Source: Promethearchaeota archaeon (GTDB lineage Archaea > Asgardarchaeota > Lokiarchaeia > Sigyniarchaeales > SOKP01). Taken from it: a stretch of 64,000 nt of DNA. A program made the position numbers and the translations under genes. Positions 48,348 through 64,000 of this stretch are shown here, piece after piece. Positions within the stretch are counted from its first letter, which is position 1, and each line of letters starts with the position of its first letter. The stretch is from assembly GCA_016839585.1 (NCBI GenBank), contig JAEOTZ010000058.1:65792-129791 (forward strand). The letters are read 5' to 3'. Under the pieces are notes generated by a model. It was given only the letters and a program-made list of their open reading frames with translations, made no database searches and was not told where the DNA came from.

Positions 48348-49811
48348 TTATCCCCAAAATGGTTTCCAGCGATTCCATATGTCCCATCGCGGTATATTTT
48401 TTATATTATACCAGAAAGCTTTTTGTCTATATCTACTTTTTAAGATTTTATAAATTTGGCGGGATATGTAGCGGGGTCGCTGCATGAACTTTCTATGAGT
48501 TTCTTTTATACGTGCCATTAGTTCACTCAAAGGTATATTAAGAATAGCAGTACCAACTTCCCAACATTCATCAGGGTTGATTCGTTTTTCATCAACCATC
48601 TGATTCCAAATCCAATTTCCTGGAATTATGCCTAAAATATGAAATTGTGGAAAATCAATATCCAATTTAAGTGCTAAATTAAATGTATCAATTATTTCCT
48701 CGCGTGTCTCAATTGGCGCACCCACTATAAAATTTGCTAGAATAATATCAATCCCAACCTTTTTCGAATTTTTTATTGCATCATAGACTTGATTTAGTGT
48801 AATTCGTTTATTATACCAGTCTAAAACTCTTTGCGAGCCACTTTCGACGCCATAACTTATAATTTTGCAGCCCATATGTTTCATTGCAGTCAGAAGTTCC
48901 CTTGAACCCTGAGTCACCCTCCCCTCCGCCATCCAATTTAAATCTATCTTTTCCTTTCTAATTAATTGTGATAGTTCCATTAATCTTTTTTTACTTATAG
49001 TAAAATTATCATCAACCCAATACAAATTTTGATAACCTTGATTCTCGAGAAGGGAAAGTTCTTCTACTATATTTTTCGGAGATCTTGGACGCCATCTGCC
49101 CCAAAACATAGCGCTTGAGCAAAATGTACATTGAAATGCACAACCTCTTGAAGAAGAAGCAGTGGTAAAATTTCCTAGCGAAATATCAAGACCTTCTACT
49201 TCACTTTTATATTCTACCTTTCCTAATAATTTCCTATTTGGAAATGGAAGGGTGTCAATATTTTCTATGAGGGGTCTATCTTTATTTCTAATAATTCTAC
49301 CATTATTTCGATACGACACACCTCTTATATCTTCAAAGCCATGACCTTTTTCAGTTTTTTCAGCAATTTCTAAAAGAGTATTTTCCCCTTCTCCTCTAAT
49401 GCAAGCATCAATGAATGGGTACTTATTTAATATTCTGGTATCATTGAAAGTTGCGTGATAATTCCCAAATAAAATCTTAACATTCGGATTTATTTCTTCC
49501 TTTACTCTTTTAGCAATTTCTGCTGATGTAATTCCAGTTCCTGAGGTGGTTATCGTTGAAAAACCTAAAATATCTGGATCTTCTTGCTTTATCCATTTCA
49601 AAGTTTCATCAATTGAAGCTGATTGAGCGAACTGATCAAATATAGATGCCTTAAAATTATTTTCGGTTAGATAAGTCGCGAGATACAATATTCCCATTGG
49701 TGGAAATCCATAGAAATCAATTTTTTCTTTGACATATTGTTCAGCTTCTTTAACGGTACCGCAAAATATTCCTCTATCTGGGGGTTTTGGAAAAATTAAA
49801 GATACTTTCAA
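48348..49811 (-). CDS. B12-binding-domain radical SAM protein (class B-like)
   Basis: An N-terminal Rossmann-like cobalamin-type domain (DILGFSTITTSG), then GEGE, and SSSRGCAFQCTFCSS (CX3CX2C). Confidence 0.85.
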   Translation of the reverse strand: MKVSLIFPKPPDRGIFCGTVKEAEQYVKEKIDFYGFPPMGILYLATYLTENNFKASIFDQFAQSASIDETLKWIKQEDPDILGFSTITTSGTGITSAEIAKRVKEEINPNVKILFGNYHATFNDTRILNKYPFIDACIRGEGENTLLEIAEKTEKGHGFEDIRGVSYRNNGRIIRNKDRPLIENIDTLPFPNRKLLGKVEYKSEVEGLDISLGNFTTASSSRGCAFQCTFCSSAMFWGRWRPRSPKNIVEELSLLENQGYQNLYWVDDNFTISKKRLMELSQLIRKEKIDLNWMAEGRVTQGSRELLTAMKHMGCKIISYGVESGSQRVLDWYNKRITLNQVYDAIKNSKKVGIDIILANFIVGAPIETREEIIDTFNLALKLDIDFPQFHILGIIPGNWIWNQMVDEKRINPDECWEVGTAILNIPLSELMARIKETHRKFMQRPRYISRQIYKILKSRYRQKAFWYNIKNIPRWDIWNRWKPFWG

Positions 49812-50003
49812 AAAATCACTTTAAATTTGAATTAAATTTAATGGTTCTTTTAATTAAACATCATTATTTCAATTCTAGTTTAATTATATAGGTTAAATAA
49901 ATCTTAAAAATAAAATCATTTTTGATGTATATATTAGAAAAGAGATAAATGTATAATTAAAACTAATAATATCATACACAAACCTGTGAAAATGGTCTAT
50001 TAA

Positions 50004-51464
50004 ATGAAATTAATTGATAAAGAAATCCAAAAAGTAGCATTAGTAAATCCAAATTTTATTACTAAAAGCATTACAGATAAATTTACAATCCCTGCTTTAG
50101 GATTAGAATATCTTGCTGCTAATATTTTAGATTTAGCTGAAGTGAAGATAATTAATGGTAAAGTAAGGAATTTAAACCTCAAGGAAATTATGGAGGAAAT
50201 TAATGAATTTAAACCAGATATTGTTGGAATTTCATGTTGTTTAACAACAGGAGTTAATTTTGCCTTAGAAATAGCAAAAGAGTCAAAAAAACTTGGATAT
50301 TCAATCGTATTAGGGGGTTGGCATCCTAATTTTGCCCCTTCTGAAGTTTTAAAATATCCATTTGTAGATATTATTGTCCGAGGAGAGGGAGAAGTCACCT
50401 TTCGGGAATTAATCGAAAACAAAAATCTAGAAAAGATAAAAGGAATATCATATAAAAACAATGGGAGTATTATAAACAATCCAGATCGCCCATTAATCAA
50501 AGATTTAAATAAACTACCATTTCCAGCAAGGGAATTAAGAAATAAAAAGTCTTATTTTCAAATCTTTCAGATGCCTATAGATGCGATTGAGACATCAAGG
50601 GGTTGCCCATTTAAATGCACTTTCTGTAATATTCATCTTTTTTATCGAGGAACCTATAGAATAAAAAGTCCAGAACGGGTTATTCAGGAGTTAAAAATTA
50701 TTACAAATGGAAAAAAACATATAAATGTAATGATTGTGGATGATAATTTCACAACAAATATTAAAAGAGTAGAGAAAATTTGTGATTTAATAATCAAAGA
50801 AGGAATTAAAGTGGATTTAACTTGTCAAAGTCGCATTGATGTTATAAAAAAGAATCCAAATGTAATCAAAAAAATGTCTAAAGCAGGGTTTTGGTGTTTT
50901 TTCCTTGGTATTGAATCATTTAATCAAAAATCTTTAAATAGTATTCAGAAAAGAGTTCAATTCCGAGATATTTTTGAAGCAATTAAAATACTTCATGATA
51001 ATGATATAGTAATAATTGGCAGTATGTTGGTAGGTTCAAATCTTGATGAGGAAGAGAAAGATACTGATCTAATGATAAAAGTTGTCAAAAAATTAGGAAT
51101 AGATTTTCCATTATATTCCGTAATGACACCTTTACTAGGTACGAAATTCAGAGATATCCTAATTGAAAAAAATTATCTTGTATCTCATAATTGGAGTGAA
51201 TACAATTTTACCACAGCAGTAAATCGATTAAATAAACTATCAAAGGAAAAGCTAGACCAACTTTTATCTAAGGCATATTATTATGGATATTTTCATAGGG
51301 GTTGGAAAGATACTTTAATGAGATTATATAGGAAAAAAGGAATTAAAATATTTTTAAATACAAGAAAATTTAAAGCTCTTAAGGATATTTTAGGTTTATT
51401 TAGAAATATTAGAAGAATGAAAAATGAAATAGATTCAATATCCCCTACCATAAAATTTAATTGA
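50004..51464 (+). CDS. B12-binding-domain radical SAM protein (paralog, divergent)
   Basis: Carries DIVGISCCLTTG, GEGE and ETSRGCPFKCTFCNI. It is colinear with 48348..49811. Confidence 0.85.
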   Translation: MKLIDKEIQKVALVNPNFITKSITDKFTIPALGLEYLAANILDLAEVKIINGKVRNLNLKEIMEEINEFKPDIVGISCCLTTGVNFALEIAKESKKLGYSIVLGGWHPNFAPSEVLKYPFVDIIVRGEGEVTFRELIENKNLEKIKGISYKNNGSIINNPDRPLIKDLNKLPFPARELRNKKSYFQIFQMPIDAIETSRGCPFKCTFCNIHLFYRGTYRIKSPERVIQELKIITNGKKHINVMIVDDNFTTNIKRVEKICDLIIKEGIKVDLTCQSRIDVIKKNPNVIKKMSKAGFWCFFLGIESFNQKSLNSIQKRVQFRDIFEAIKILHDNDIVIIGSMLVGSNLDEEEKDTDLMIKVVKKLGIDFPLYSVMTPLLGTKFRDILIEKNYLVSHNWSEYNFTTAVNRLNKLSKEKLDQLLSKAYYYGYFHRGWKDTLMRLYRKKGIKIFLNTRKFKALKDILGLFRNIRRMKNEIDSISPTIKFN

Positions 51465-52672
51465 AATTCCAAATTTTCAACAACAATTCCAATCCTTTCT
51501 ATAAACTACTTAATATTGCAATGTTAAGTATTAAACATAAATCGAAAAAACAATCTTTTCAATTACCAATATCGGGATATTTGGGATATTTTATAACTAA
51601 ATTTTTTCATTTTTATAAACCGATTACTTTAATTCATGAGAGATTTGAAACTATAACCTTATTTAATGAAATTAGTAAAATAAAAATAGATAAGCCTGTT
51701 TATATTACGGGTCTCGCTCGCGCAGGAACAACAATTGTATTGGAAATGTTAAGTAAGCACCCCGATTTAGCAACCCATCAATATAAGCATCTTCTTATAC
51801 CATATTTCCCCTATTGGATGTATAAAATTACTAATAAGGTTAGAATTTATTCAAAACCTACTAAAAGGATCCACAACGATGGTATTATGATTACGCGTGA
51901 TAGTCCTGAAGCAGTAGAGGAGATTTTCTGGAGAAAATATTTTAAGCATATAAGTATTGAAAATTCTTCACATATACTAAATGGGAACACTATAAACCCC
52001 AAATTTGAGAACTTTTATCCAAATCATATGCGGAAGCTTCTAATTGCCCAAATGCGTTCTCGGTATCTAGCAAAAAACAATTACAATGTCACCAGATTGG
52101 AGTATTTGCTAAGAATTTTCCCATCAGCTAAATTCTTGTTAATTATTCGCAACCCAGTAAATCATATTGCTTCATTAATTAAGCAAACAAAACTTTTCAT
52201 GAAGATGGAAAAACAAATACCTTTTTTGCTAGATTGGTTGAAAATCCTAGGGCACCGAGAATTTGGTCATAATAGCATTTGTATTAATGTAAATAATACC
52301 GAATTAATTCATAAAATTCGTAAATTGTGGAGCAATAAAAAAACATATGTAAAAGGATGGGCTTATTATTGGGCGTCGATTTACGATTTTATTGCCAATA
52401 GTCTTGAAGAAAATAAAAAACTCAGAAGTGCAACCTTTACAGTTGATTACAATAAATTATGTGAGAAACCAGCAGATACTATTGATAGAATACTTGAACA
52501 TACTGAACTACCCTTAAGTAAATTTCTGAAAGTTAGAGAATATTATATTAATCATTTACATAAACCCACCTATTATTCTCCCGATTTTTCTGAACAAGAA
52601 CTCTCAGATATTTATGAGGTTACAAAGGACACAGCTTCTCGATTTGGATTAAAAATTCCTTTAGGCAATTAA
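51461..52672 (+). CDS. Sulfotransferase-family protein
   Basis: 5'-PSB-like ITGLARAGTTIV and 3'-PB-like LLIIRNPVNHIASL. The TTG start overlaps the rSAM stop by 4 nt. Confidence 0.7.
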   Translation: MKFQIFNNNSNPFYKLLNIAMLSIKHKSKKQSFQLPISGYLGYFITKFFHFYKPITLIHERFETITLFNEISKIKIDKPVYITGLARAGTTIVLEMLSKHPDLATHQYKHLLIPYFPYWMYKITNKVRIYSKPTKRIHNDGIMITRDSPEAVEEIFWRKYFKHISIENSSHILNGNTINPKFENFYPNHMRKLLIAQMRSRYLAKNNYNVTRLEYLLRIFPSAKFLLIIRNPVNHIASLIKQTKLFMKMEKQIPFLLDWLKILGHREFGHNSICINVNNTELIHKIRKLWSNKKTYVKGWAYYWASIYDFIANSLEENKKLRSATFTVDYNKLCEKPADTIDRILEHTELPLSKFLKVREYYINHLHKPTYYSPDFSEQELSDIYEVTKDTASRFGLKIPLGN

Positions 52673-53407
52673 CTGTCTTAAAGTTATAAATTCCCATTTT
52701 TTAACTAGAGATTCCACAATAAAACCACGTAATGTTTCTAAAAATGTATCTCCTGTATGAAGCCAACGATCTAGTCTAAATAAAATATTTTTTACTGTTT
52801 CAAATTTACTGGCATGCTTACGAATTAAATTTTTCATATTTATTGCCTCATAAGGATGAAAATATAAAATAAGTAAATCCGTCTTAAAGATCTTCCGTTT
52901 GAGAAAAGGATAAGGCAATCTCAAATAGATACTATATTTTGAAGGGTGAAATTCTTGAATTTTATTGCTATCCCTTTGATAATGTGATAATTTTTTGGGT
53001 GATCCAATCGAAGAATCGTACCTAAAACCTAAATTACTTAGTATTTCAAATAAAAATTTTGGTGGTTTTAAATAAGGAGCTCGAAAACCAATAATCTCTG
53101 AATTTTGACAAGTTTCTTCTAGAACCTTTTTATTCTGATAAATTATATCTTGGCATTTAATAAAATCTAATTGATTTAAGCGTTCATGATATAAACCGTG
53201 GCAAGCAATTTCATGACCTTTTTGCTCAATTAGTCTTATATACTCTGGTAGATGCTCAACAACATTTCCAGTACAAAAAAAAGTCCCCTTGACATTGAAA
53301 TTATCTAAGATATCCAATATTTTCAATAATCCAATTTCCACGCCGAAATAGGTATCCAAAACATTAGGAAGATCCCTCTCAATATCAAAAGTCAGTGCAA
53401 TCTTCAT
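52661..53407 (-). CDS. Polysaccharide deacetylase (CE4/NodB-homology, TFDxE subtype)
   Basis: Carries ALTFDIERD, GTFFCTG and GHEIACHGLYH. There is a 12-nt convergent overlap with the sulfotransferase gene. Confidence 0.7.
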   Translation of the reverse strand: MKIALTFDIERDLPNVLDTYFGVEIGLLKILDILDNFNVKGTFFCTGNVVEHLPEYIRLIEQKGHEIACHGLYHERLNQLDFIKCQDIIYQNKKVLEETCQNSEIIGFRAPYLKPPKFLFEILSNLGFRYDSSIGSPKKLSHYQRDSNKIQEFHPSKYSIYLRLPYPFLKRKIFKTDLLILYFHPYEAINMKNLIRKHASKFETVKNILFRLDRWLHTGDTFLETLRGFIVESLVKKWEFITLRQLIA

Positions 53408-53538
53408 TATTTACGCAGTAATCTTTAAGATATAAAATAAACTAATTTTATTTTTATTAAATTTTATTTAAAGGCACAAAACTGAAAAATTTAATATTAA
53501 TTTCAATATTTAATTTCAGAAAAGTAGATTAAAAAACA

Positions 53539-54654
53539 ATGCGAGTGTTAATATTAGGTGCTGGGATTACTGGTTGTACATTGGGAAGACTGATGAAAGA
53601 TAAGGATTATCATATTTCAATTAAGGAAAAACAAGATCACATTGGTGGATTATGTTATACAAAGACAAGTCCTAATGGAATTCTATATGAACCCTATGGT
53701 GGACATGCATTTCACACTAAAGATAGTCGTATTAAAAAGTTTGTTCTTAATTTCTCAGAGTTTAATAATTATATTCACAAAAAGGGAATTTTTATCAATG
53801 GTGTATTACGTCATTTTCCTCTCAGTAGGAAAACTATTTTTGAGATGGAAAGAAGTGATAAAATTCTCAAGGAATTAGAAAAACGACCAATCACTCCTGA
53901 TTTTACTAATTTTGAAACTTTCGCAATTTCTCAATTTGGTAATACTTTATATAAATTATTTATATATAATTATTCTAAGAAAATGTGGGGTGTAGAACCC
54001 AAAGAATTAACAACCGAATATATCCAAAATCGTATTACACTGAAAGACTCTAATACTCAGTTATTTGAAGATAATTTTCAAGGACTACCGGTTAAAGGAT
54101 ATACAAAATTCCTTAGAAATATGATACATGACATCCCCATTGAATTAAATACTAGTGAATTTGACGAGTCTTTGTATGATCTCATTATATACTCAGGTCG
54201 AATAGATGAACTATTTAAATTTAAATTTGGAATTTTACATTTTAGGTCTTTACGATTTGATTATAAGGAAAATGATGTTTGGGAAAATGATAATTATGGT
54301 ACAATTAACCTTCCTCAACATGCGAAATATATACGAAAAGTAAATTTTAAAATTATGTATCAACAGAAAATAAATAAATCATGGACCCAATATCAAGAAC
54401 CGATATCATTCTATAATAATATGCCAATGTATCCAATATATACTAAACAAAATATCGAATTATTTGATAGATATCTTATTGAAGCTTGCAAGTCTAATAA
54501 AATTATTCCCGTTGGTCGTTTGGGATTATACAAATATTTAGAAATGGGTCAAGCTATTTCTTTAGCAATGAATATGATTCTTTTAATAGAAAAATGGAAA
54601 AAATTAAGCCCTAAAAATAGATATCTTGAAATTAAGAAGCTATTAAATAATTAA
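53539..54654 (+). CDS. glf: UDP-galactopyranose mutase
   Basis: Carries VLILGAGITGC, DHIGGLCYT, GGHAFHT and VGRLGLYKYLEMGQAI. Confidence 0.8.
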   Translation: MRVLILGAGITGCTLGRLMKDKDYHISIKEKQDHIGGLCYTKTSPNGILYEPYGGHAFHTKDSRIKKFVLNFSEFNNYIHKKGIFINGVLRHFPLSRKTIFEMERSDKILKELEKRPITPDFTNFETFAISQFGNTLYKLFIYNYSKKMWGVEPKELTTEYIQNRITLKDSNTQLFEDNFQGLPVKGYTKFLRNMIHDIPIELNTSEFDESLYDLIIYSGRIDELFKFKFGILHFRSLRFDYKENDVWENDNYGTINLPQHAKYIRKVNFKIMYQQKINKSWTQYQEPISFYNNMPMYPIYTKQNIELFDRYLIEACKSNKIIPVGRLGLYKYLEMGQAISLAMNMILLIEKWKKLSPKNRYLEIKKLLNN

Positions 54655-54669
54655 TAAGTCTAATTCTAG

Positions 54670-55479
54670 CTATGATTGTTTCTTCCAATTAATATCTTTT
54701 GCTAAATTATAAAAAATGTCTTTTTTTGAATGGTATTGGACAACACGTCCTAAACTACGACGAGTGCTTAAATATCTTCCACTTGTTAACACTGAACTAA
54801 AATTTAGATTTTTAATTTTACCCTTTTTCATTAATCTACTTAGATATATTAATGAATCTGAGAATACCTTGTCAATTCCCATTAAATTTGGCGGTAGTTG
54901 CTTAAATCCACCAACTTTAAAAAATATATCTCTTCTAACAATTATATTGCATCCTATAAGTTCAGGATATCCAAGTAAAGTTTTAAAAAAATACCATAAG
55001 TGCATACTAAAGTTAAGAAAAAAATAGATTGTTATAGTAAATATCTGGGAACCCAAATTAAATGTAATGGCTCTTCCATCATAATATTTAACTCTGGCAC
55101 TACAAGCAAAAAGATTTTTATGTTTCTCAAAGATTCTATAGACTTTTTGTAAGAAATATGGATCTATTAACGTATCTGCATCTAAAAATACAAGTAAATC
55201 ACCAGAAGTTTTAGGTACAACAAAATTTAATTGAAATGACTTACCTCTTTTTGGTGAAATATACACTTTCGCATAATCTTTTGCTATAGAAACGGTTTTA
55301 TCAGAGCTTTGTCCATCAACTACAATAATTTCATAAGGAACTATGCATTTTTGCTTTTTAACTGCTATTAAAGTTCTTTTTATATTAATCTCTTCATTAT
55401 ATGTGGGTATGACAACTGATATTTTAGCGGTTTTCATTTTGCTATTTCTAAGTAGATTGAAATTTAATTTTTGATTCAT
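54670..55479 (-). CDS. Family 2 glycosyltransferase
   Basis: Carries ISVVIPTYNEE, IIVVDGQSSD and FLDADT. The real start may be the internal MKTAKISVV. Confidence 0.8.
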   Translation of the reverse strand: MNQKLNFNLLRNSKMKTAKISVVIPTYNEEINIKRTLIAVKKQKCIVPYEIIVVDGQSSDKTVSIAKDYAKVYISPKRGKSFQLNFVVPKTSGDLLVFLDADTLIDPYFLQKVYRIFEKHKNLFACSARVKYYDGRAITFNLGSQIFTITIYFFLNFSMHLWYFFKTLLGYPELIGCNIIVRRDIFFKVGGFKQLPPNLMGIDKVFSDSLIYLSRLMKKGKIKNLNFSSVLTSGRYLSTRRSLGRVVQYHSKKDIFYNLAKDINWKKQS

Positions 55480-55572
55480 TCACTTAGGGATAGTTATTAT
55501 AATATGATTTTTTAATATTCTATAAAAGAATTAAATATATTAAAAAAAATTAATTGATTTTAGAATAAGAAA

Positions 55573-56790: not shown

Positions 56791-57990
56791 ATGGGAATTA
56801 GTATGGTCTCCGAAATAATGCTTATTGATTTAAGAAGTGAAGTAGAAGCAACTTCTAATGAATGTAAACTATATAAACAAATCTGTGAAGAAAAAGAATA
56901 CGATTTTGATCAGACCATCAAAGGATCAAATCTTGATGAAGTACCTTATGTAAATTGGAATTACTTTAAAGAATCAAATAAAAAATTTCAGGAATTATTA
57001 CGAATTCCTTATAATAAATTATCATATTGGACAATTAGTTCATCCACGTCCGGAGATCCAAGTTTAGTAGGGAGAGGTGCCGAAGACATTGAAGTATTTA
57101 AGAATAATTATAGAAAAGTATTTGAAGAATATTCAAGAATGCGTTCAATTAAACGTTTAATCTTATTTGCTCCATCAATTGAATTTATGAATAAAATGCC
57201 AGGGAGCTGGTTAGGAAAACGAGGTTTTCTTTTTTATCGAGATATTACAGATATTTGGAAAAATTATGAGATAGATTTTTTATTGAAATTTAAAGTTTGG
57301 AAGGTTCTTCTCTACTTAATTACTCATTTTAAGGCAAAAGCATTTATCGAAATAAATGGAAAACTGATGGTAAAAATTCTTAAAGAGGTAGAACACCAGA
57401 AAATTCCTACATTGATTGCTAATTCAGTTCCTCTAATGTACCAAAATTTTGTAGATTATTATAAGAAGCATAAAAAAGGTTTTAATATGCCTGAAACTTT
57501 CAGGATTCAACTTGGAGGGGGAGGATGGAACGGTATAAAAGGTAGAATAAGACTTGAGCATAAAATAAATAAAGTGGACTTTATGGAAAAGATGTCTAGT
57601 TTATTCAACATCCCTTATGATAATATTACAGATAATTATGGTGCAACTGAAGTTCCAATTGCCTGTGGTGGTCATTGGAGTAAAAATTATGAGGATTTTC
57701 TATTTCATATTGATAAAGATGATGCTCATATAATCATCCGTGATATAGATACTCTCGAAAGTATAAAAAAAACAAATGAACCTGGTATAATTGAGGTATT
57801 AACCCCTTACGGTGTTAAATCCTATGCAGGTGTTGCTGTCATGCTTGATGATATAGTTGAAATAGTAAATTTTAACAAATGTGTTGAATGTGGTAGAGAA
57901 GGAATAGTATTTAGAATAACGGGAAGAATGACACCAGAAATTGGAAAAGGATGTAGTTCTTTTACGAATTTGTTCCCTTTTAAATCATAA
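56791..57990 (+). CDS. LuxE-type acyl-protein synthetase-like adenylate-forming enzyme
   Basis: Carries ISSSTSGDPS (a degenerate P-loop), QLGGGGWNGIKGR, YGATE, CVECGREGIVFRITGR, and a conserved Cys 12 residues from the C-terminus (GKGCSS). Confidence 0.6.
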   Translation: MGISMVSEIMLIDLRSEVEATSNECKLYKQICEEKEYDFDQTIKGSNLDEVPYVNWNYFKESNKKFQELLRIPYNKLSYWTISSSTSGDPSLVGRGAEDIEVFKNNYRKVFEEYSRMRSIKRLILFAPSIEFMNKMPGSWLGKRGFLFYRDITDIWKNYEIDFLLKFKVWKVLLYLITHFKAKAFIEINGKLMVKILKEVEHQKIPTLIANSVPLMYQNFVDYYKKHKKGFNMPETFRIQLGGGGWNGIKGRIRLEHKINKVDFMEKMSSLFNIPYDNITDNYGATEVPIACGGHWSKNYEDFLFHIDKDDAHIIIRDIDTLESIKKTNEPGIIEVLTPYGVKSYAGVAVMLDDIVEIVNFNKCVECGREGIVFRITGRMTPEIGKGCSSFTNLFPFKS

Positions 57991-58090
57991 ATTCCTAAAA
58001 GCTTTTTTTTAATATAACTTCAATTAAAAATATAAATAGATCAATATCTAAATTTATAATCTAATAATTAATTCATTAAAAGGAATCAAG

Positions 58091-58945
58091 ATGTTTAAAA
58101 ATAATACTAATTCTTGGATAAAGAAACTAATTATTCTTTTCATATTTATAGGCGTAATTATGTTAACTGCTGAAGTAGACTGGGTTGCTGAGCATCCTAA
58201 CGTAGGAATCTCTGTGCGATTAATATGGTTAATTAGTTTATTAAGTTTAGGTTTAATTTTATCCCTTCTATTTATGTATTTTGCAGGCAATGACGAAAGC
58301 GAAAGAGGAGAATCTGATAAAAAGTGGTTTATAATAGCTATTATTCTATTCATAATCGCTAATGGAATTCCAATCGTGTTTTATGCAATACTTGGAATCT
58401 CACCAGGTTTCTTTATATATCTTCAATTAATTTTGTTTGGGCTAATTCCGGCTTTTTTTCATCAACCAAAAGAAATAAAACATCGAATTCTAATATTAGT
58501 TATTCTTTTTGCAGTTATTCTTATCCCCGTAGGGATTTTTGTCAATTTAACAATTGATGCTATTTGGTATAAGGGAGTAGATGATAAAACTATGTATTAT
58601 TTATCCTTCTGGGGATTATTAATGACCTTTTTCTATCTTATTGTTGCGATTGGCTGGAAATTGGGTGGTGGCACTAAAAGGCAAAGCTGGAATATATTCG
58701 TGGCTGGAACTCTTTTACAATATAGCACTCTCGAAGATTTTTTCTACTTCTTGTTAAATGGGCAATCACTTCCTGGTACTTGGCCTTGGATGAGTAATTT
58801 CGTTATTGATTTAAAAACTTTATTTGGGCATGTTCCAACTGACTTGGATCTTCTCATTTTTTGTCTAATAATAAGTATCATTGCACTGTTTATTCTTTTT
58901 GATGGTCATGGCTATCTATGGACAAAGATTAGAAAAAGTGGCTAA
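58091..58945 (+). CDS. Polytopic (about 8 TM) membrane protein, unknown function
   Basis: Hydrophobic throughout. It is bracketed by the two LuxE-like genes. Confidence 0.6.
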   Translation: MFKNNTNSWIKKLIILFIFIGVIMLTAEVDWVAEHPNVGISVRLIWLISLLSLGLILSLLFMYFAGNDESERGESDKKWFIIAIILFIIANGIPIVFYAILGISPGFFIYLQLILFGLIPAFFHQPKEIKHRILILVILFAVILIPVGIFVNLTIDAIWYKGVDDKTMYYLSFWGLLMTFFYLIVAIGWKLGGGTKRQSWNIFVAGTLLQYSTLEDFFYFLLNGQSLPGTWPWMSNFVIDLKTLFGHVPTDLDLLIFCLIISIIALFILFDGHGYLWTKIRKSG

Positions 58946-58963
58946 TAAGAATAAAAGGATAAA

Positions 58964-60265
58964 TTAATGAAGCCAATCAATTATTGAAGAGCAACTTCTA
59001 CCTTGAGCATCCGTTAATCTTCCGATAACTCTAAATGTAGCACCTTCATAACCACATTCTGGACATTTCTTTTTTGAAATAAGCTTTACAATATCGTCAA
59101 CTAGAACTGCCTGATTTATGCTACCATTTACACCGTATGGAGTAATTACTTCGAGCAAACCTTCCATACCATCATTTACAGGTTCTAACTTATCTAGATC
59201 TCTTACTATAATCCTAGAGGTATCAGGGCAATGTAATAAGAAGTCTTGGTATTTTTCAGACCAGTGTCCTCCAAAGAGAGTCGGACCCTCTGTAAATGCG
59301 TAAATATCGGCAATATCTTTCGATTTAATGTTAAAAATTTTTTCATAATTTTCAATAAATCTAACTTTTTCTACTGCGTCTAATTTTGCTTCACCCTTAA
59401 CGCCATCCCATCCTCCACCACCACAACCAACGAAAGCTAGACCATCAAGATCAAAAAAAACGTTTTCTTTTGATAATCTTTTCTCAAACATGTTATTCAT
59501 TAAAAGTGGGCTCCCACCAAATATAATTTTACTCACTTCTATTCCTTTCCAATGCCCTGTTTTTAGAATTGTTGTAACCATTTTCAGCATTTTACTTACA
59601 TCTAATATAAAACCCCCTCTTATTGAAAGAGATGAAATTATTGCCCAAATTGTTTTTAAAATTTTTCCTTTTATCATATATTCCTCATGCCCATAGTATT
59701 CCCATGGTTTATTCATGCATGCTGTGAAATAGCGTGTTTTTTTAACATATTCAAATCCTTTAGCATTTTTTTTTGCCATAAATGACATCATTAAACGATT
59801 TGGTGCAAAATTAAAAACAAGACATCTTTTGGGACCAACTTTTAAGTCCTTCCATCTAAAAAACTCTGTAAAAACTTTAATTGAATTATATTGTATCTGG
59901 TCAAAATCCTCTAATGTTCGAGGCACAATTGAGGGATCCCCTGTTGTAGAAGATGAACATGAAAATAATACAATTTTATCAATAGGTACTTTTAGTAGTT
60001 GTGAGGTTCGACCTTCTGATTTTTTATAAATGTCAGTAGGAGTATAGGGGATTGTTTCTAAATTATCGATTGTTAATTTCTCTGGAATTTTAAAATCAAA
60101 CTTCTTACAAAAATTATCTTTGTAATAATTACAATTATTATAGGCAACCTTTATTTGTTCTAATAAATCTTCGCAAAATTTTTCATCTGGATAAGGAGTA
60201 GGTTTAAAATCAAAATATTTCGTTTGTAATTCTTCAGGTAAATAATCATGTGCTTTAAATACCAA
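58964..60265 (-). CDS. LuxE-type acyl-protein synthetase-like enzyme (paralog)
   Basis: Carries CSSSTTGDPS, GCGGGGWDGVKGE, CPECGYEGATFRVIGR and GRSCSS (Cys 9 residues from the C-terminus). Confidence 0.6.
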   Translation of the reverse strand: MVFKAHDYLPEELQTKYFDFKPTPYPDEKFCEDLLEQIKVAYNNCNYYKDNFCKKFDFKIPEKLTIDNLETIPYTPTDIYKKSEGRTSQLLKVPIDKIVLFSCSSSTTGDPSIVPRTLEDFDQIQYNSIKVFTEFFRWKDLKVGPKRCLVFNFAPNRLMMSFMAKKNAKGFEYVKKTRYFTACMNKPWEYYGHEEYMIKGKILKTIWAIISSLSIRGGFILDVSKMLKMVTTILKTGHWKGIEVSKIIFGGSPLLMNNMFEKRLSKENVFFDLDGLAFVGCGGGGWDGVKGEAKLDAVEKVRFIENYEKIFNIKSKDIADIYAFTEGPTLFGGHWSEKYQDFLLHCPDTSRIIVRDLDKLEPVNDGMEGLLEVITPYGVNGSINQAVLVDDIVKLISKKKCPECGYEGATFRVIGRLTDAQGRSCSSIIDWLH

Positions 60266-60362
60266 AAAAATAACCTAATTTCAAAATTTTTTGTATTAAT
60301 TTAAAGAATTACGGGTAAATAATTAAATCTTATCTGATATTAATAAAAAAAAAGAAAATAAA

Positions 60363-61715
60363 TTATATAGTAGATAAGGCTACTATTTCTGCTTCTTCTT
60401 TTTCGAAAAGCATTGGCGTTTTTTCCCAACTTAAATCTTTAGGAAGTTTAAATTGACGTAAAAACATATAAAGATGAATAAAGCCACTTATTGGAAAAAA
60501 TAATAAAAGACTGTAATGTTTATCACAATATTTACGTATGGCATTGAATATAAATCCAAATTGAAAGATCAAGCAGAAAAGGCTCCAACTTAGTAAATAA
60601 AATTCTCCAATCATAAAATAAAATATTGCAAAACCAATTATAATAGGGATCCACGTATCTAAATTCGCTATAACCATCATTGTCATATTTCTGGAGATAA
60701 CTAGTGATTTCCCATTCTTTTTTTCGCTTTTCATTTGCATTAATTGTGGCATATCAAAAATAAATCCTGCTAGCCAGCGTGTTCGTTGTTTTACTAGAAT
60801 CTCCCATGTATTTGGCACATATTCGTAAATTTTTGCCTTGGGCGAAAAGTAAATTTGTACTCCATCTAAATTTAAAAGCACAGAAAGATATAAATCCTCT
60901 GTCATTGAATCTTCATTAAAACCTCCATATTTCAGTAGATATTTCGTCCTAACAGCAAAATTTCGCCCAAATGAATAAGCTGATGACCCTAATCTATTTT
61001 TAATTTCAAATAATAATCCCCCTCCAGAAACAATAGAATAATCAAGAAAGATACCTTTAGTTAATTTATTATCTTTCCAATTTTTAACTAAAACAGGACC
61101 TATAACTGCATTATATCTATCATCTTGAAATGGTGAGATTAAATGTTTTAATGTATCTGGTTGTAAAATACAACCTGCATCATAAAGGACAACAATATCA
61201 TTTTTTACATATTTTAAACCATAATTCAGGGCTGGGGGTTTTCCCTTTTTAGGAAGATCCTCTGATAACACTTCTATCTCTATTGCGTTATGTTCTCTAG
61301 CAAAATTTCTACAAAAATCGGTTGTATCATCTGTCGATCCACTTGTTATTACAATTATTTGGATGTTTTCTTTGGGATAATTTGACTCAATAATCGAGTT
61401 TAAAGTCCTCTCTATTAGTATTCTTTCATTTTTACAAGCAATTAATATGCTTATATTAGTATAATAAGGTGTTTTGGTTCGATAGCCTCTCCCAAATGAT
61501 GCTAAGAAATGTATTCCATAAAAAATAACGAATCCTAACAACATAACTAGACCAATTAATGGAAATATGAACCACCAGTAAGTTAAAGGCTTAAGGATGA
61601 ATCTATCAATTGCTCTTTTTACTCCCGATGACCAGAAAGGTGCTAAATACATATGAAATAGCGTAAAGACTATCACCAATACACATCCATGTAGTAAATA
61701 TCTTGTAATTTTCAT
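60363..61715 (-). CDS. Processive membrane-embedded family 2 glycosyltransferase (synthase type; cellulose/chitin/PNAG-synthase-like)
   Basis: TM helices flank a GT-A core with ISILIACKNE, YDAG, TED and QRTRWLAG (the Q-x-x-R-W motif). Confidence 0.85.
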   Translation of the reverse strand: MKITRYLLHGCVLVIVFTLFHMYLAPFWSSGVKRAIDRFILKPLTYWWFIFPLIGLVMLLGFVIFYGIHFLASFGRGYRTKTPYYTNISILIACKNERILIERTLNSIIESNYPKENIQIIVITSGSTDDTTDFCRNFAREHNAIEIEVLSEDLPKKGKPPALNYGLKYVKNDIVVLYDAGCILQPDTLKHLISPFQDDRYNAVIGPVLVKNWKDNKLTKGIFLDYSIVSGGGLLFEIKNRLGSSAYSFGRNFAVRTKYLLKYGGFNEDSMTEDLYLSVLLNLDGVQIYFSPKAKIYEYVPNTWEILVKQRTRWLAGFIFDMPQLMQMKSEKKNGKSLVISRNMTMMVIANLDTWIPIIIGFAIFYFMIGEFYLLSWSLFCLIFQFGFIFNAIRKYCDKHYSLLLFFPISGFIHLYMFLRQFKLPKDLSWEKTPMLFEKEEAEIVALSTI

Positions 61716-61719
61716 CTTT

Positions 61720-62655
61720 TCATTCTCTCTTAATTTTATCCAATTTTTTTAAATTTTTCCAAATATATCTAGCAAAAAGAATAACTGAAAGGGTCATAAT
61801 ACCTAAAAGACTGATTTGATAAATCAACATTGTCCAATTCACTACCCATTCGTGTGACGCAGACCATATTTCAGTTGCATCGGGATTAATCAAATGTGTT
61901 AATAATACCACAAGACTAGAAGTGCCATAGAGTGCAAAAAACGTAGTTATTAATAATATTCGCGTTATTCTCTCACCAATAAATGGTTTTGTCTCATGTA
62001 GACCTAAACCTTCATGTCTTGCTCTCATGTACTCATAAATAAAAATTAGTAAGATATTGGTCCAAACCATCCATGCAAAATCGAATCCATTCGATAAAAC
62101 CACTAAATTAGTAGGAACTAAACATACCAACATTAATGTATCGCTTACTCTATCAATCACATTATCTAACCAACCCCCACTTTTTGATTTTATATCCAAT
62201 AACCTTGCTATTGATCCATCAATTCCATCGATAATTCCTGTCACTAGTACTAAAGCAGCAAGACCAAAAAACAAAGAGCCATAACCAAGTTGGTCAGAAA
62301 ACAAATCTAATGTGTGCCCCTTACTAGCCATTATAACACCATAAAATATGAGAAATGATAATATTAGATTTATGAAAGATACTAAATTTGGAGTTAAGCC
62401 CCATTTGATAAAGATTTTTGCTCCGTGATATGTTATTGGCATATAGATTTTTCCTGCTGGATCCTTTTTCATTTTTGCAAATTGTTCTTCTTGCTTGTGA
62501 GCCTGTCCATGATCATTCAGCCAATCTTTTATAAATTCATCCAAGCTCATAAATTCCTGTTTTGGATATTTTTTAGAGATTCCAATAATGAAAATAATAA
62601 TTAGAATCCCAAGCAAAACTAGCGGAAATACTATTTCAAATATTATTTTTGTCAT
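61720..62655 (-). CDS. CDP-alcohol phosphatidyltransferase-family protein with an N-terminal extension
   Basis: DGIDGSIARLLDIKSKSGGWLDNVIDRVSD fits D-x2-D-G-x2-A-R-x8-G-x3-D-x3-D. It lies 4 nt upstream of the GT2 synthase gene. Confidence 0.85.
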   Translation of the reverse strand: MTKIIFEIVFPLVLLGILIIIFIIGISKKYPKQEFMSLDEFIKDWLNDHGQAHKQEEQFAKMKKDPAGKIYMPITYHGAKIFIKWGLTPNLVSFINLILSFLIFYGVIMASKGHTLDLFSDQLGYGSLFFGLAALVLVTGIIDGIDGSIARLLDIKSKSGGWLDNVIDRVSDTLMLVCLVPTNLVVLSNGFDFAWMVWTNILLIFIYEYMRARHEGLGLHETKPFIGERITRILLITTFFALYGTSSLVVLLTHLINPDATEIWSASHEWVVNWTMLIYQISLLGIMTLSVILFARYIWKNLKKLDKIKRE

Positions 62656-62832
62656 ATCACTCGCCGGGTATTATTTTATTCTTTATTGTTCTTATAAATT
62701 TGAAATTGGTAATTTAATATAGAGTATAATATATTATTTAAATTTAGTGTAAATTAGATGATTAAATGAAAGGTTATTATATTCAACTTGTATTTATAAT
62801 ATTAATACTATCATCTAGGTAGAATAAATATC

Positions 62833-64000
62833 TTGAAGAACCTTGAACCTTTTTTTAACCCAAAAAGTATCTTAATTGTAGGCGTTTCAAGGAAAGCTTA
62901 TACTTTTAGTTATACTGTCTTAAAAAACCTTTTAGAGATTTTTTATCAAGGCAAACTCTACATATTAAACCCTAATGCTAATGAGGTATTAGGTGTTAAA
63001 TCCTATCATTCTTTAGAAGAATTACCTGAAATTCCAGAACTAGCAGTAATAGTTTTAGGTACGAAAATATTAGACATTGTGGAAGAATTAGGGAAGTATG
63101 GTGTGAAATATGTAACAATTCAATCTGAATTAAAAACAGGAATTAATGATACTGATTTAACATTAAAATTGCATAAAGTCTGTGAAAAATATGGGATAAC
63201 CTATTTAGGACCTTCAATGATAGGAATTATTAACTTTATTGATAACTTTACGACATCAATTATTCCTGTTAGACAACATATAATGCGAGAAAATAAGAAC
63301 ATAACAGAGGGTATAGGTTTCATAGCACAATCTGGAGGGTTAGCAGGTGCTCTAGGGTGGTGGACCCCCTCACAAAAATTACCCATATCAAAAGTTATAC
63401 ACTTAGGAAAAGGCTTTCACGTTAATGAACAAGATATTATTGAATTCTTTCTTAATGATAAAACAGTTAAAGTTATTTCTTTGTTTTTAAGGGAAATTTC
63501 GGATGACCTAATTGACGCAGTAAAGAATATCTCTCAATATAAACCCGTTCTTTTCTTTTATGTAGGAAAAGATGAATTAAAAGAAAGAGAATTAGAAAAA
63601 GCAGGAGGAATATCAGTATTAAATTACATTGAGCTTTTTGAGATAGCTAAGATATTCTTATGGTGTCCAGAGCCTAAGGGTCCCAATTTAGGGATTATTG
63701 GACCTAGTTCTGGTGCAATTCATCTAATTGTAAAAGAAATGAGAAAACAACATTTATCTTTGGCAAAACCAGATAAAGAATCTCAAGACATAATTATAAA
63801 TAAAATAGGTGGCTCTACTTGCGCATATGGTAACCCTGTTGATTATTGGCCCCCAGAGAAATTTATAGGTATTAAAATTTGTGGTATCTATAATACATCT
63901 GCTTCTACTTTATTAAAGGACGAACATGTTGATGGATTAATCCTTGCCTTGGAATTTTTTATTGAAATTGAATTTGATTTTAATATATTTGATAGTATAA
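62833..64000 (+). CDS. ADP-forming acyl-CoA synthetase (ACD)/CoA-binding-domain protein, 3'-truncated by the window end (not in the ORF track)
   Basis: Open from the TTG at 62833 to the window end with no stop. It carries FNPKSILIVGVS, YILNPNANEVLG, LAVIVLG, YLGPSMIGIIN and FIAQSGG. Confidence 0.6.
   Translation, partial: MKNLEPFFNPKSILIVGVSRKAYTFSYTVLKNLLEIFYQGKLYILNPNANEVLGVKSYHSLEELPEIPELAVIVLGTKILDIVEELGKYGVKYVTIQSELKTGINDTDLTLKLHKVCEKYGITYLGPSMIGIINFIDNFTTSIIPVRQHIMRENKNITEGIGFIAQSGGLAGALGWWTPSQKLPISKVIHLGKGFHVNEQDIIEFFLNDKTVKVISLFLREISDDLIDAVKNISQYKPVLFFYVGKDELKERELEKAGGISVLNYIELFEIAKIFLWCPEPKGPNLGIIGPSSGAIHLIVKEMRKQHLSLAKPDKESQDIIINKIGGSTCAYGNPVDYWPPEKFIGIKICGIYNTSASTLLKDEHVDGLILALEFFIEIEFDFNIFDSI

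Follow-up and report, generated by a model that had tools for sequence, protein, structure and literature searches.

A modular gene island of Lokiarchaeia linking a CDP-alcohol phosphotransferase and a membrane glycosyltransferase to putative glycan-tailoring enzymes

Introduction

In hopanoid head-group synthesis, bacteriohopanetetrol (BHT) is converted to BHT-GlcNAc by HpnI, to BHT-GlcN by HpnK and to BHT cyclitol ether by HpnJ (PMC13459092). In archaea, calditol is synthesized by a glycosyltransferase (GT) and the radical SAM enzyme Cds (PMC9385802). The gene island described here, found in a metagenome-assembled genome of Lokiarchaeia (Promethearchaeota), resembles these routes in its membrane GT2, which would place an (N-acetyl)hexosamine on a lipid, its deacetylase and its radical SAM enzymes, which would remodel the sugar afterwards. 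One of the latter (rSAM1) scored 173 bits with the HpnJ model, and the GT2 matched HpnI and HpnB weakly. However, these scores are far below the cut-offs and BchE scored equally well, the deacetylase is of the CE4 family whereas HpnK is of the YdjC type, and in place of the hopanoid an archaeal phospholipid would be carried through additional LuxE, left-handed beta-helix (LbH), UDP-galactopyranose mutase (UGM) and sulfotransferase steps.

With the PNAG systems pgaABCD/icaADBC the island shares a PgaC/IcaA-like GT2 with five transmembrane helices (TM), a deacetylase of the CE4 family and a membrane enzyme for O-acylation, comparable to IcaC. In contrast to them, it has no PgaD/IcaD, PgaA or C-terminal domain of PgaB, its acyltransferase is of another family, and its CDP-alcohol phosphotransferase (CDPOH) and LuxE proteins have no counterpart there. 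The rhizobial Nod-factor genes (NodC, NodB, NodA, NodH, NodL) likewise bring together a hexosamine synthase of the GT2 type, de-N-acetylation by a CE4 enzyme, re-acylation, sulfate transfer and O-acetylation by an LbH enzyme, and weak matches to NodC, NodB and NoeE, far below the cut-offs, were detected in the island. However, a NodA homolog is missing, acyl activation in the island would be of the LuxE type, and nod clusters show no connection with an enzyme of the phospholipid type.

The early steps of GPI-anchor synthesis follow the order PIG-A, PIG-L, PIG-W, and glucosaminyl-archaetidylinositol exists in Methanosarcina. The corresponding series in the island would be its CDPOH, then a putative GlcNAc transferase, then a de-N-acetylase and finally a membrane acyltransferase. 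The CDPOH falls into the inositol-phosphate clade and shares motifs with the PIP/AIP synthases, but it reached only 71 bits with the AIPS equivalog (cut-off 180). Since the enzymes belong to other families (GT2, CE4 and LbH versus GT4, LmbE/PIG-L and PIG-W), the island would be analogous, not homologous, to the GPI steps. Of the LuxC-LuxE fatty-acid reductase of the bacterial luciferase system, the island has counterparts in two PF04443 members, LuxE1 and LuxE2, in which the GGGW loop, the equivalent of Arg355 and the C-terminal acyl-Cys are kept; in contrast, the island contains no LuxC reductase, LuxD or luciferase, and its context is that of glycan and lipid rather than aldehyde synthesis.

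Results

Gene content of the island

The island lies in the region 48348-64000 of the window, the whole stretch of 64,000 nucleotides that was analysed. Domains were called at Pfam gathering thresholds, and pathway identity was judged by NCBIfam equivalog cut-offs. All domain calls of the first-pass annotation were above the Pfam thresholds, and the alternating strands were borne out by the open reading frames, which form at least seven transcription units. The count of fourteen genes had to be corrected to 13 non-overlapping ones, of which 12 constitute the island (48348-62655). The 13th, an ADP-forming acyl-CoA synthetase alpha-like gene (62833..64000, plus strand, cut by the window end; CoA_binding_2, Succ_CoA_lig), had been counted as a member, but the neighbourhoods of relatives place it in the conserved flank. 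It was found 4-5 genes off the island, inside the L10e/rS568 block, in L014, L016, L024, L029, L031, L036 and L051, and its AcCoA-syn-alpha score of 195 bits fell short of the cut-off (567).

Judged by profile matches, each enzyme is a member of a known superfamily and none matches a characterised pathway. The earlier view that no described archaeal pathway is represented agrees with the equivalog cut-offs, which were reached by none of the genes, the agl N-glycosylation models included (AglJ-type matches only 29-34 bits). STT3/AglB, Wzx/Wzy and WecA/MraY-type polyprenyl-phosphate sugar transferases, of which the first reading had likewise seen none, were not found among the 12 island genes and about 42 other window ORFs scanned. 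Likewise, no dolichol-phosphate priming enzyme, PAPS synthesis genes or evident precursor peptide gene were found in the window.

The core triad and the LuxE-type ligases

The first gene of the core triad (61720..62655, minus strand, 311 aa; CDP-OH_P_transf 8e-11) encodes a class-I CDPOH with the complete signature D143xxD146G147xxA150R151...G160xxxD164xxxD168 and an extra N-terminal TM. The best match of 18/18 orthologs was BT1523-PIPS, AIPS, PIPS or DIPPS, all below the cut-offs, and the PDB profile matches were AF2299, RsPIPS, MtPIPS and DIPPS only. The PIPS motif YxRARxEGLGL...ERxxR is present, and R232 aligns at R155 of MtPIPS, an inositol-phosphate arginine (PMC4634129); for the second such arginine of MtPIPS, R195, no clear equivalent was seen. 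According to the TM prediction, the protein lacks the additional helices at the C-terminus that accompany lipidic acceptors (PMC4634129). By its motifs and profiles the enzyme groups only with inositol-phosphate-handling proteins (PIPS/AIPS/DIPPS) and looks built for a soluble acceptor.

The membrane GT2 (60363..61715, minus strand, 450 aa), assigned by Pfam, motifs and AF2/Foldseek, has a cellulose-synthase-like fold and a 2 + 3 TM layout with D129, D179, TED 272-274 and QRTRW 310-314. Its best NCBIfam match was PgaC/IcaA, over nearly the full length (110 bits, cut-off 422), followed by NodC and Pfam Chitin_synth_2. The AF2 model (pLDDT 80) resembled PcManGT, HAS, BcsA and Chs1 in Foldseek, with E values of 1e-14 to 1e-9. 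As PgaC/IcaA, NodC and Chitin_synth_2 use UDP-GlcNAc, these matches fit the CE4 partner, and the substrate is probably UDP-GlcNAc or a related UDP-hexose. The enzyme may be processive, as its motif and modelled fold suggest; single-transfer lipid glycosyltransferases and polymer synthases are, however, not told apart by QxxRW or by this fold.

LuxE2 (58964..60265, minus strand, 433 aa; LuxE 3e-23) is the third gene of the triad. In the profile alignment to LuxE (7xc6_E) the GGGW loop is present, with R416 at Arg355 and C425 at Cys364, the catalytic Arg and the acyl-Cys, respectively (PMC9157457). It carries an extra invariant Cys/His set and has 186 homologs; representatives at E<=1e-30 numbered only 17 among 1.84 billion. 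LuxE1 (56791..57990, plus strand, 399 aa; LuxE 4e-16), an accessory paralog of the LuxE/PaaK adenylating, self-thioesterifying type, is 34% identical to LuxE2 and has the C-terminal motif GKGCSS. Both have a Cys near the C-terminus at the acyl-Cys position. In most relatives the orthologs of LuxE1 are solitary and lie elsewhere. Between the two ligases an accessory orphan polytopic membrane protein is encoded (58091..58945, plus strand, 284 aa), for which no Pfam or NCBIfam match was obtained. Its homologs numbered 186, and the 120 matches listed were 66-100% identical, all with Asgard source names. No fold in PDB matched the AF2 model (pLDDT 82), the lowest E value being 0.49.

Module B and the tailoring enzymes

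Core module B consists of an LbH enzyme (55573..56688, plus strand, 371 aa; Hexapep 2e-10) and a small GT2 (54670..55479, minus strand, 269 aa; Glycos_transf_2 7e-28). The former had been described as a membrane-tethered hexapeptide acyltransferase. Its Hexapep C-terminal domain indeed lies behind 4 predicted TM helices, but the best matches, heptaprenylglyceryl-phosphate O-acetyltransferase in NCBIfam (71 bits) and galactoside/maltose O-acetyltransferases in PDB (E 8e-16), suggest an O-acetyltransferase more than an enzyme that transfers long acyl chains. The small GT2 is a candidate Galf- or hexosyl-transferase. The accessory UGM-like flavoenzyme (53539..54654, plus strand, 371 aa; GLF 8e-39, NAD_binding_8) scored 233 bits with TIGR00031 (cut-off 304).

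The CE4 protein (52661..53407, minus strand, 248 aa; Polysacc_deac_1 1e-17) had its best NCBIfam scores with the XrtA-system polysaccharide deacetylase (86 bits) and with NodB (59 bits), neither of them reaching the cut-off. The motifs TFDIE, H70xxxH74, R109APY and FHP are kept in 27 orthologs, and TFDIE, the first of them, implies that the second Asp is replaced. The enzyme belongs to an uncharacterised subfamily and is a putative de-N-acetylase.

The class-B radical SAM proteins rSAM1 (48348..49811, minus strand, 487 aa; Pfam B12-binding 1e-18, Radical_SAM 4e-26; accessory module) and rSAM2 (50004..51464, plus strand, 486 aa; B12-binding and Radical_SAM) are divergent paralogs with 32% identity and CxxxCxxC in both. 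The best NCBIfam match of rSAM1 was BchE with 186 bits, next to HpnJ; rSAM2 gave 192, 158 and 143 bits with BchE, HpnR and HpnJ, respectively, all below the cut-offs, and RiPP methylase models were matched as well. Orthologs of rSAM1 (77-94% identity) occur in some loci only. The 3' end of rSAM2 overlaps by 4 nt the start of an accessory PAPS-type sulfotransferase gene (51461..52672, plus strand, 403 aa; Sulfotransfer_3 6e-20), the product of which contains a 5'-PSB-like G84LARAGTT91 and a 3'-PB-like R230-x7-S238. Its PDB sequence matches were limited to short stretches of protein-tyrosine sulfotransferases; the TPST match covered 38 residues, the PAPS site only.

Linkage among relatives

Gene neighbourhoods were compared across 72 related loci. 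The CDPOH and membrane GT2 genes, 4 bp apart in the window, are adjacent in 38/42 loci, which gives good support to the connection between the two proposed earlier. Together with LuxE2 they form the triad on one strand in 33/41 informative loci. The LbH and small GT2 genes are neighbours, arranged as a divergent pair, in 31/35 loci, and UGM adjoins the small GT2 in 16/17. CE4 is linked to the LbH/small GT2 and radical SAM modules, not to the membrane GT2, and has a B12-dependent radical SAM gene at most two genes away in 16/26 loci. UGM and the sulfotransferase were present in 12/48 and 13/48 loci, respectively; whether the sulfotransferase, the B12-rSAM genes, LuxE1 and the orphan membrane protein are present varies with the lineage. 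Some loci have LuxE2 but not the CDPOH-GT2 pair: in L002, L042 and L045 it is accompanied by three B12-rSAMs, and in L003, L008 and L047 it stands alone. The loci of relatives also contain rSAM-SPASM/U32 modules and small membrane proteins of the zinc-ribbon type (F3, F14).

The region is a real gene island, the order of which is shuffled among relatives while linkage is kept. The description as a mosaic was correct: the full order is found only in L004-L006, the closest relatives, and in other lineages modules are exchanged and re-associate in different orders (window, L021 and L056 types). Scattering of the homologs is contradicted by their linkage, which is strongly conserved within Lokiarchaeia and recurs as a divergent version in one Helarchaeota locus (L049) and as a partial one in a Bathyarchaeia locus (L053). 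Nor do the genes fall into separate well-characterised pathways such as an agl cluster.

Discussion

From the gene content, motifs, folds and linkage of the two core modules we infer a lipid-anchored hexosamine glycoconjugate that would lose N-acetyl groups and be re-acylated or O-acetylated, with galactofuranose, sulfate and radical-SAM modifications as optional additions. We give this product about an even chance; it would be the head group of a glycophospholipid or a glycan, short or long, carried by such a head group. At the cytoplasmic membrane face, the PIPS/AIPS-like CDPOH would join a CDP-activated archaeal lipid with a soluble, inositol-phosphate-like polyol-phosphate. The presumably co-transcribed membrane GT2 would glycosylate this lipid, in a single transfer or processively, with possible translocation of the product. 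N-acetyl groups would be removed by CE4, and the LuxE-type ligases would adenylate a carboxylic acid and pass it via the C-terminal Cys to a glycan amine or hydroxyl. The LbH enzyme would O-acetylate the glycan or relay an acyl group, and the small GT2 would add a further sugar, in the window lineage Galf supplied through the adjacent UGM. Lineage-specific tailoring would follow, in which sulfate is transferred and the class-B radical SAM enzymes C-methylate the sugar or rearrange its ring, analogous to the succession of GlcNAc transfer (HpnI), deacetylation (HpnK) and ring contraction (HpnJ). As no enzyme reached an equivalog cut-off, every substrate named is a prediction. The unclear counterpart of R195 in CDPOH, the replaced Asp of CE4 and the loci in which LuxE2 stands apart from the CDPOH-GT2 pair speak against this reading.

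A secreted or capsular, synthase-dependent homopolymer of the PNAG or chitosan type, in which GlcNAc is polymerised and exported by the GT2, partly deacetylated by CE4 and O-acetylated by the LbH enzyme, while CDPOH adds a phospho-alcohol or is functionally unrelated, is unlikely. The nearly full-length PgaC/IcaA match, the TM layout, the fold shared with HAS, BcsA and Chs, the CE4 partner known from pga/ica systems and the missing Wzx/Wzy and oligosaccharyltransferase all suit it. However, the PgaC/IcaA score is about a quarter of the cut-off, no PgaD/IcaD-like partner was recognised, CE4 is linked to other modules than the membrane GT2, and the near-invariant operon with a PIPS/AIPS-like enzyme of soluble-acceptor appearance would be left without a reason. 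Somewhat more doubtful is that the region represents no single pathway but a variable gathering of unrelated envelope and lipid genes, with two or three small independent modules. The number of transcription units, the strongly lineage-dependent module content, the solitary LuxE1 orthologs and the occurrence of LuxE2 without other island genes are consistent with this, whereas the re-joining of the same modules in varied orders, also in Helarchaeota and Bathyarchaeia, and the adjacencies of 31/35, 38/42 and 16/17 speak against it.

The tailoring of glycans on proteins of the S-layer or elsewhere on the surface, or of another non-lipid acceptor such as a peptide, appears quite improbable. It would accommodate the zinc-ribbon membrane proteins and rSAM-SPASM/U32 modules of relatives, the protein-tyrosine sulfotransferase stretches and the RiPP methylase matches, but the window has no oligosaccharyltransferase, dolichol-phosphate priming enzyme or evident precursor peptide gene, the AglJ-type matches are low and the TPST match is confined to the PAPS site.

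For the lipid-anchored glycoconjugate, the decoration first proposed, a galactofuranosylated, sulfated and radical-SAM-modified product, would describe the variant of the window lineage only, because UGM, both B12-rSAMs, the sulfotransferase, LuxE1 and the orphan membrane protein all belong to the accessory genes. The island itself is chromosomally fixed but modular in Lokiarchaeia.

Gene content of the island and the window

The ORF listing of the interval 48348-64000 gave 13 non-overlapping ORFs on alternating strands, instead of the 14 genes counted in the first-pass annotation. Three more listed ORFs were nested within longer genes and were judged spurious. Every domain named in that annotation was recovered by Pfam above its gathering threshold. 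Two proteins carry B12-binding and radical SAM domains (rSAM1, 48348-49811, minus strand; rSAM2, 50004-51464, plus strand). They are followed by a Sulfotransfer_3 protein (51461-52672, plus), a CE4 deacetylase (52661-53407, minus), a GLF/UDP-galactopyranose mutase protein (UGM, 53539-54654, plus), a GT2 of 269 aa (small GT2, 54670-55479, minus) and a protein in which four predicted TM helices at the N-terminus precede a C-terminal hexapeptide domain (LbH, 55573-56688, plus; the domain was assigned by Pfam). Two LuxE proteins (LuxE1, 56791-57990, plus; LuxE2, 58964-60265, minus) are located on either side of a polytopic protein of 284 aa without a Pfam or NCBIfam match (58091-58945, plus), referred to here as the orphan membrane protein. 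The remaining genes encode a GT2 of 450 aa with TED and QRTRW motifs (large GT2, 60363-61715, minus), a CDP-alcohol phosphotransferase with all eight signature residues (CDPOH, 61720-62655, minus) and a CoA-binding/succinyl-CoA-ligase-like protein, which resembles ADP-forming acyl-CoA synthetases and is interrupted by the window end (ACD, 62833-64000, plus). The identity between the paralogs was 32% for rSAM1/rSAM2 and 34% for LuxE1/LuxE2. Since no island protein reached an NCBIfam equivalog cut-off, none can be assigned to a characterised pathway. All the island enzymes belong to known superfamilies.

The GC content was about 30% across the whole window, and the values of the island (25-33%) matched those of the remainder, which consists of housekeeping genes. 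These include GrpE, DnaK and DnaJ, glutamine synthetase, an H+-pyrophosphatase, ribosomal protein L10e and the archaeal RNase P RNA (22373-22695, plus, 135.8 bits). At 38057-42568, the genes of methylmalonyl-CoA mutase (large subunit and separate B12-binding subunit) and of MeaB precede those of a YdjC-like carbohydrate deacetylase and a GNAT protein. The mutase genes indicate that the organism uses cobalamin, which bears on the B12-dependent radical SAM proteins of the island. Elsewhere in the window, three MscS-type mechanosensitive channel paralogs surround a CorA Mg2+ transporter gene (1791-5686), an ORF of 1285 aa (16042-19899, minus) gave a sub-threshold TPR match as its sole Pfam signal, and a clostripain (C11) protease with a PPC domain adjoins a DUF2804 protein matching its Pfam model over the full length with 475 bits (27201-30481). 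The tRNA search over all 64 kb gave no genes, and the repeats in the window were only short, AT-rich, chance ones.

CDP-alcohol phosphotransferase and the large membrane glycosyltransferase

The class-I signature D1xxD2G1xxAR...G2xxxD3xxxD4 was present in CDPOH as D143, D146, G147, A150, R151, G160, D164 and D168, and these residues were invariant or nearly so in 18 orthologs. The best models for all 18 were BT1523-type PIPS, AIPS, PIPS or DIPPS, with scores well below the cut-offs. For the window protein, the scores were 71.5 bits with AIPS (cut-off 180), 52 bits with PIPS (170) and 62 bits with the BT1523-type model (350); thus, the AIPS/PIPS equivalog level was not reached. The family profile matched only AF2299, the PIPS of R. 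salmoninarum and M. tuberculosis, and DIPPS in the PDB. Beyond the CDP signature, CDPOH and PIPS share the motif Y-x-[KR]-A-R-x-E-G-L-G-L ... E-R-x-x-R. R232 of CDPOH, within ERxxR, aligns with R155 of MtPIPS, and the alignment leaves R195 uncovered; R155 and R195 are the two arginines which bind the phosphate of inositol phosphate in MtPIPS (PMC4634129). According to hydropathy, CDPOH has a six-TM core with one extra N-terminal helix and no additional C-terminal helices. As additional C-terminal helices of CDP-alcohol phosphotransferases are associated with lipidic acceptors (PMC4634129), the hydropathy profile points to a soluble polyol-phosphate as the putative acceptor of CDPOH.

The D,D,D,QxxRW and TED motifs of the large GT2 (D129, D179, T272-E-D274 and Q310RTRW314) were invariant in 25 sequences. 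In the AlphaFold model (pLDDT 80, pTM 0.81), two N-terminal and three C-terminal TM helices surround the GT-A domain and QRTRW is placed on an interface helix. The model has the cellulose-synthase-like fold, in which the GT-A domain is packed on the TM bundle through interface helices. Foldseek matched it with PcManGT, hyaluronan synthases, BcsA and chitin synthase at E-values of 1e-14 to 1e-9 and TMq of 0.45-0.53 (PDB entries 6yv7, 8smm, 4p00 and 8k3r). The top structural match, PcManGT, is described as a mannosyltransferase and not as a polymer synthase. The nearest NCBIfam model was PgaC/IcaA, matched over nearly the full length with 110 bits against a cut-off of 422, while the NodC model gave 40 bits against 550. 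The QxxRW motif is present in glucosylceramide synthases too. The modelled fold and the motif fall short of proving the processivity that the first-pass annotation had ascribed to the large GT2, which may transfer one sugar or synthesise a polymer.

LuxE paralogs

LuxE1 and LuxE2 scored 59.5 and 82.9 bits with PF04443 (cut-off 24.9). In the comparison of the LuxE2 profile with P. phosphoreum LuxE (7xc6_E), G283GGW286, R416 and C425 of LuxE2 were placed at residues 234-237, 355 and 364, respectively. In LuxE, the Lys238/Arg355 pair is used in adenylation and Cys364, in the C-terminal TRxxKGCxLS motif, in thioester formation (PMC9157457). C425 is invariant and lies in GxSCSS, the corresponding sequence of LuxE1 being GKGCSS, and K290 or K294 are the candidate equivalents of Lys238 in LuxE2. 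The alignment of the GGGW loop, R416 and C425 with LuxE supports, at the level of motifs, the proposed identity of the two proteins as self-acylating ligases. No LuxC acyl-protein reductase or aldehyde-dehydrogenase domain was found in the island genes or the scanned window ORFs.

The LuxE2 clade is small: the search among 1.84 billion gave 254 representatives at E≤1e-3, of which 17 passed E≤1e-30. LuxE2 also contains invariant His and Cys residues, H345-C346 and C401-x2-C404, which are absent from the aligned 7xc6_E and may be the ligands of a metal site that only the Asgard clade has. The neighbours of solitary LuxE1 orthologs, PEMT-like and methyltransferase genes, gave no clear functional clue.

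Tailoring enzymes and the orphan membrane protein

The LbH domain was closest to galactoside/maltose O-acetyltransferases and heptaprenylglyceryl-phosphate O-acetyltransferase, and the simplest reading is that the enzyme would transfer an acetyl group to a hydroxyl near the membrane. The match of this protein to TIGR02353 was weaker (50 bits). As this match is the one point in favour of LuxE and the membrane-bound LbH protein acting as a Pls-like pair, amide synthesis by analogy with epsilon-poly-lysine synthetase is retained only as a possibility.

The CE4 protein scored 64.6 bits with PF01522 (cut-off 23.1) and resembles the uncharacterised XrtA-associated deacetylase subfamily. The HxxxH, RxPY and FHP motifs are present, and motif 1 reads TFDIE with the second Asp replaced, a feature invariant in 27 orthologs. 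UGM matched GLF with 133.8 bits and TIGR00031 with 233 bits against a cut-off of 303.75. rSAM1 and rSAM2 have the N-terminal B12-binding domain and the CxxxCxxC core of class-B radical SAM proteins, and neither reached the cut-off of a radical SAM subfamily (BchE, HpnJ, HpnR and others). The sulfotransferase scored 72.9 bits with Sulfotransfer_3 (cut-off 27) and has the motifs of a PAPS-type enzyme: inspection of the sequence showed the 5'-PSB- and 3'-PB-like motifs GLARAGTT and R230-x7-S238. Neither ATP sulfurylase nor APS kinase was found among the scanned window ORFs.

The AF2 model of the orphan membrane protein was confident (pLDDT 82), and the fold search against the PDB gave no structural relative. 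The 120 homologs listed for it had identities of 66-100%, and all source names among these were Asgard. In six related loci, its gene forms a divergent pair with that of the sulfotransferase. The look-up of UGM and the orphan membrane protein returned only Logan contigs of 3-4.5 kb from SRR14699982, and that of the large GT2 gave no exact match. Proteins identical to those of the window are encoded on an NCBI contig of 193,947 bp.

Conservation of linkage and the chromosomal site

The profile scan with the LuxE2 alignment, conducted with one genome per GTDB species, resulted in 72 loci (numbered with L), which were compared by tblastn, ORF clustering and family HMMs. LuxE2 orthologs, defined by at least 60% identity, were present in 48 species-representative loci, 41 of which had enough upstream sequence to be judged. 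CDPOH and the large GT2 were located immediately upstream of LuxE2 on the same strand in 33 of these 41. The adjacency of the CDPOH and large GT2 genes, which have a gap of 4 bp in the window, was detected in 38 of 42 loci. The LbH and small GT2 genes were neighbours in divergent orientation in 31 of 35 loci, UGM adjoined the small GT2 in 16 of 17, and a B12-rSAM gene was no more than two genes from CE4 in 16 of 26. In 28 of the 48 loci with a LuxE2 ortholog, small zinc-ribbon membrane proteins (F3) are encoded in tandem arrays. Thus, the neighbourhood comparison revealed conserved linkage and not the scattered homologs that would speak against an island.

The description of the island as a mosaic holds as well. 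The full gene order of the window was kept only in the three closest relatives (L004-L006, LuxE2 identity 92-95%), and other lineages carry different modules. In the L021 type, a second, MftF-like GT2, a non-B12 radical SAM protein and an alpha/beta hydrolase are inserted between LuxE2 and the LbH gene. Three BchE/HpnJ-like B12-rSAM genes in tandem directly follow LuxE2 in L002 (11678-16168), and the same triple was found after LuxE2 in L012, L019, L028, L037, L039, L041, L042, L044 and L045; in L002, L042 and L045, it occurs without the CDPOH-GT2 pair. Some lineages have a U32-like/rSAM-SPASM module, recurring downstream of LuxE2 in L015, L018, L030, L034, L035 and L048 and consisting of two peptidase-U32-like proteins, three rSAM-SPASM proteins, a 237-aa protein without known identity and a B12-rSAM. 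Outside these lineages, a divergent version with LuxE, B12-rSAM, CE4, CDPOH, GT2 and small GT2 was found in Helarchaeota (L049), and a partial one with a CDPOH fragment, LuxE, B12-rSAM and LbH in Bathyarchaeia (L053). For LuxE2, the large GT2 and the orphan membrane protein, the homologs had identities of 55-100%. Most of the listed matches were unnamed, and almost all source names were Asgard labels, mostly Promethearchaeota/Lokiarchaeia. No LuxE2 match was seen in genomes of cultured strains in the scan of one genome per GTDB species.

The island is situated at a conserved site beside the block rS568 - SRPBCC - L10e - ACD. The domains of the ACD-like gene, which had been counted as part of the island, were found by Pfam; its membership was not upheld, because in seven loci 4-5 genes separate ACD from the island and the gene therefore belongs to the flank. 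In many relatives, the rSAM/SRPBCC/L10e block and not ACD abuts the CDPOH end, which indicates a local rearrangement. In the window, the radical SAM protein of this block (45849-46982, minus) is of the MSMEG_0568 family, with 269.5 bits against a cut-off of 303.7, and its gene lies with those of the SRPBCC/polyketide-cyclase-like protein and L10e. The genes beyond ACD in L004 and L006, used to infer the sequence past 64000, were not grouped with island gene families by ORF clustering, and one of them, scanned against Pfam, gave no match. A mobile element or a recent transfer was rejected, since tRNA genes are absent, the repeats are short chance ones, the GC content resembles the rest of the window and many MAGs have the island at the same chromosomal site marked by the L10e/ACD block.

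Discussion

The observation of the island was confirmed with minor corrections, whereas its earlier interpretation was partly supported: the linkage, the mosaic nature and the mismatch with known pathways hold, and the product and the processivity are unproven. The core of the locus comprises CDPOH as the PIPS/AIPS-like phosphotransferase, the large GT2 with its synthase fold and the LuxE-type ligase, together with the LbH acetyltransferase, small GT2 and CE4, and an exchangeable tailoring set surrounds this core.

Gene content, motifs, folds and recurrent linkage are what is observed, and from these we infer the steps of a mechanism. The near-invariant operon of a PIPS/AIPS-like phosphotransferase and a membrane GT2 means, most simply, that the large GT2 would glycosylate a polar lipid made by CDPOH. 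As the best family model of the GT2, PgaC/IcaA, is a UDP-GlcNAc-using synthase and CE4 is regularly present, the sugar would be GlcNAc, subsequently de-N-acetylated by CE4. The LuxE-type ligases could re-acylate the freed amine or a hydroxyl, and O-acetylation would fall to the membrane-tethered LbH enzyme. Another sugar would be attached by the small GT2, namely Galf where the lineage has an adjacent UGM. Sulfation and class-B radical SAM chemistry would be tailoring specific to the lineage. The enzyme domains for the decorations predicted previously were found, and several of the named decorations are accessory. We give a lipid-anchored glycoconjugate an even chance of being the product.

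A free PNAG/chitosan-like exopolymer would leave the operon with the phosphotransferase unexplained and is considered unlikely. The modification of a protein or peptide is very unlikely, as neither an oligosaccharyltransferase nor a precursor peptide gene was found in the window. The same modules re-associate in different gene orders and in different phyla, which makes it improbable that the island is no single pathway but a set of co-located modules. AglB (STT3), a Dol-P priming transferase, a flippase, Wzx/Wzy and a WecA-type transferase were not found among the scanned window ORFs, in agreement with the first-pass annotation, which had reported no Wzx/Wzy, AglB or polyprenyl-phosphate sugar transferase. 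A standard agl N-glycosylation cluster was rejected, as the AglJ matches had 29-34 bits against a cut-off of 325 and AglB, the Dol-P priming transferase and the flippase were absent from those ORFs. With this rejection and no equivalog cut-off reached, the statement that the island matches no described pathway stands, and the literature searches gave no account of the cluster.

The island appears to work as a blend of the pga/ica, nod, hpnIJK and early GPI or GlcN-archaetidylinositol schemes, and it belongs to none of these, since it lacks the equivalog scores or the partner genes by which they are defined. HpnI, HpnK and HpnJ act in sequence in the synthesis of the hopanoid head-group (PMC13459092), which is paralleled by the island series of GT, deacetylase and B12-rSAM. 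The GT-plus-rSAM logic of calditol synthesis (PMC9385802) is comparable with that of the island, too.

Two components are noteworthy on their own: the very small LuxE clade working outside bioluminescence and the confidently modelled orphan membrane protein without a structural relative in the PDB. The GlcN-inositol-lipid core of GPI anchors may have an analogue here. We consider it a long shot that Asgard archaea make a GPI-core-like GlcN-inositol archaeal lipid by enzymes non-homologous to the eukaryotic ones. The steps, as improbable as the pathway itself, would be the formation of an archaetidyl-inositol(-like) lipid by CDPOH, the addition of GlcNAc by the GT2, its conversion to GlcN by CE4 and acylation by the LuxE-type and LbH enzymes. 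The tailoring, likewise doubtful, would comprise Galf, sulfate and radical-SAM modification, possibly the conversion of an amino sugar to an aminocyclitol by analogy with HpnJ. If this reading is true, the pathway would yield an Asgard membrane anchor or surface glycolipid of a class not seen before. The locus provides concrete enzymes as targets for work on a glycolipid or glycan specific to Asgard archaea, and sediment lipidomics may gain biomarkers from it.
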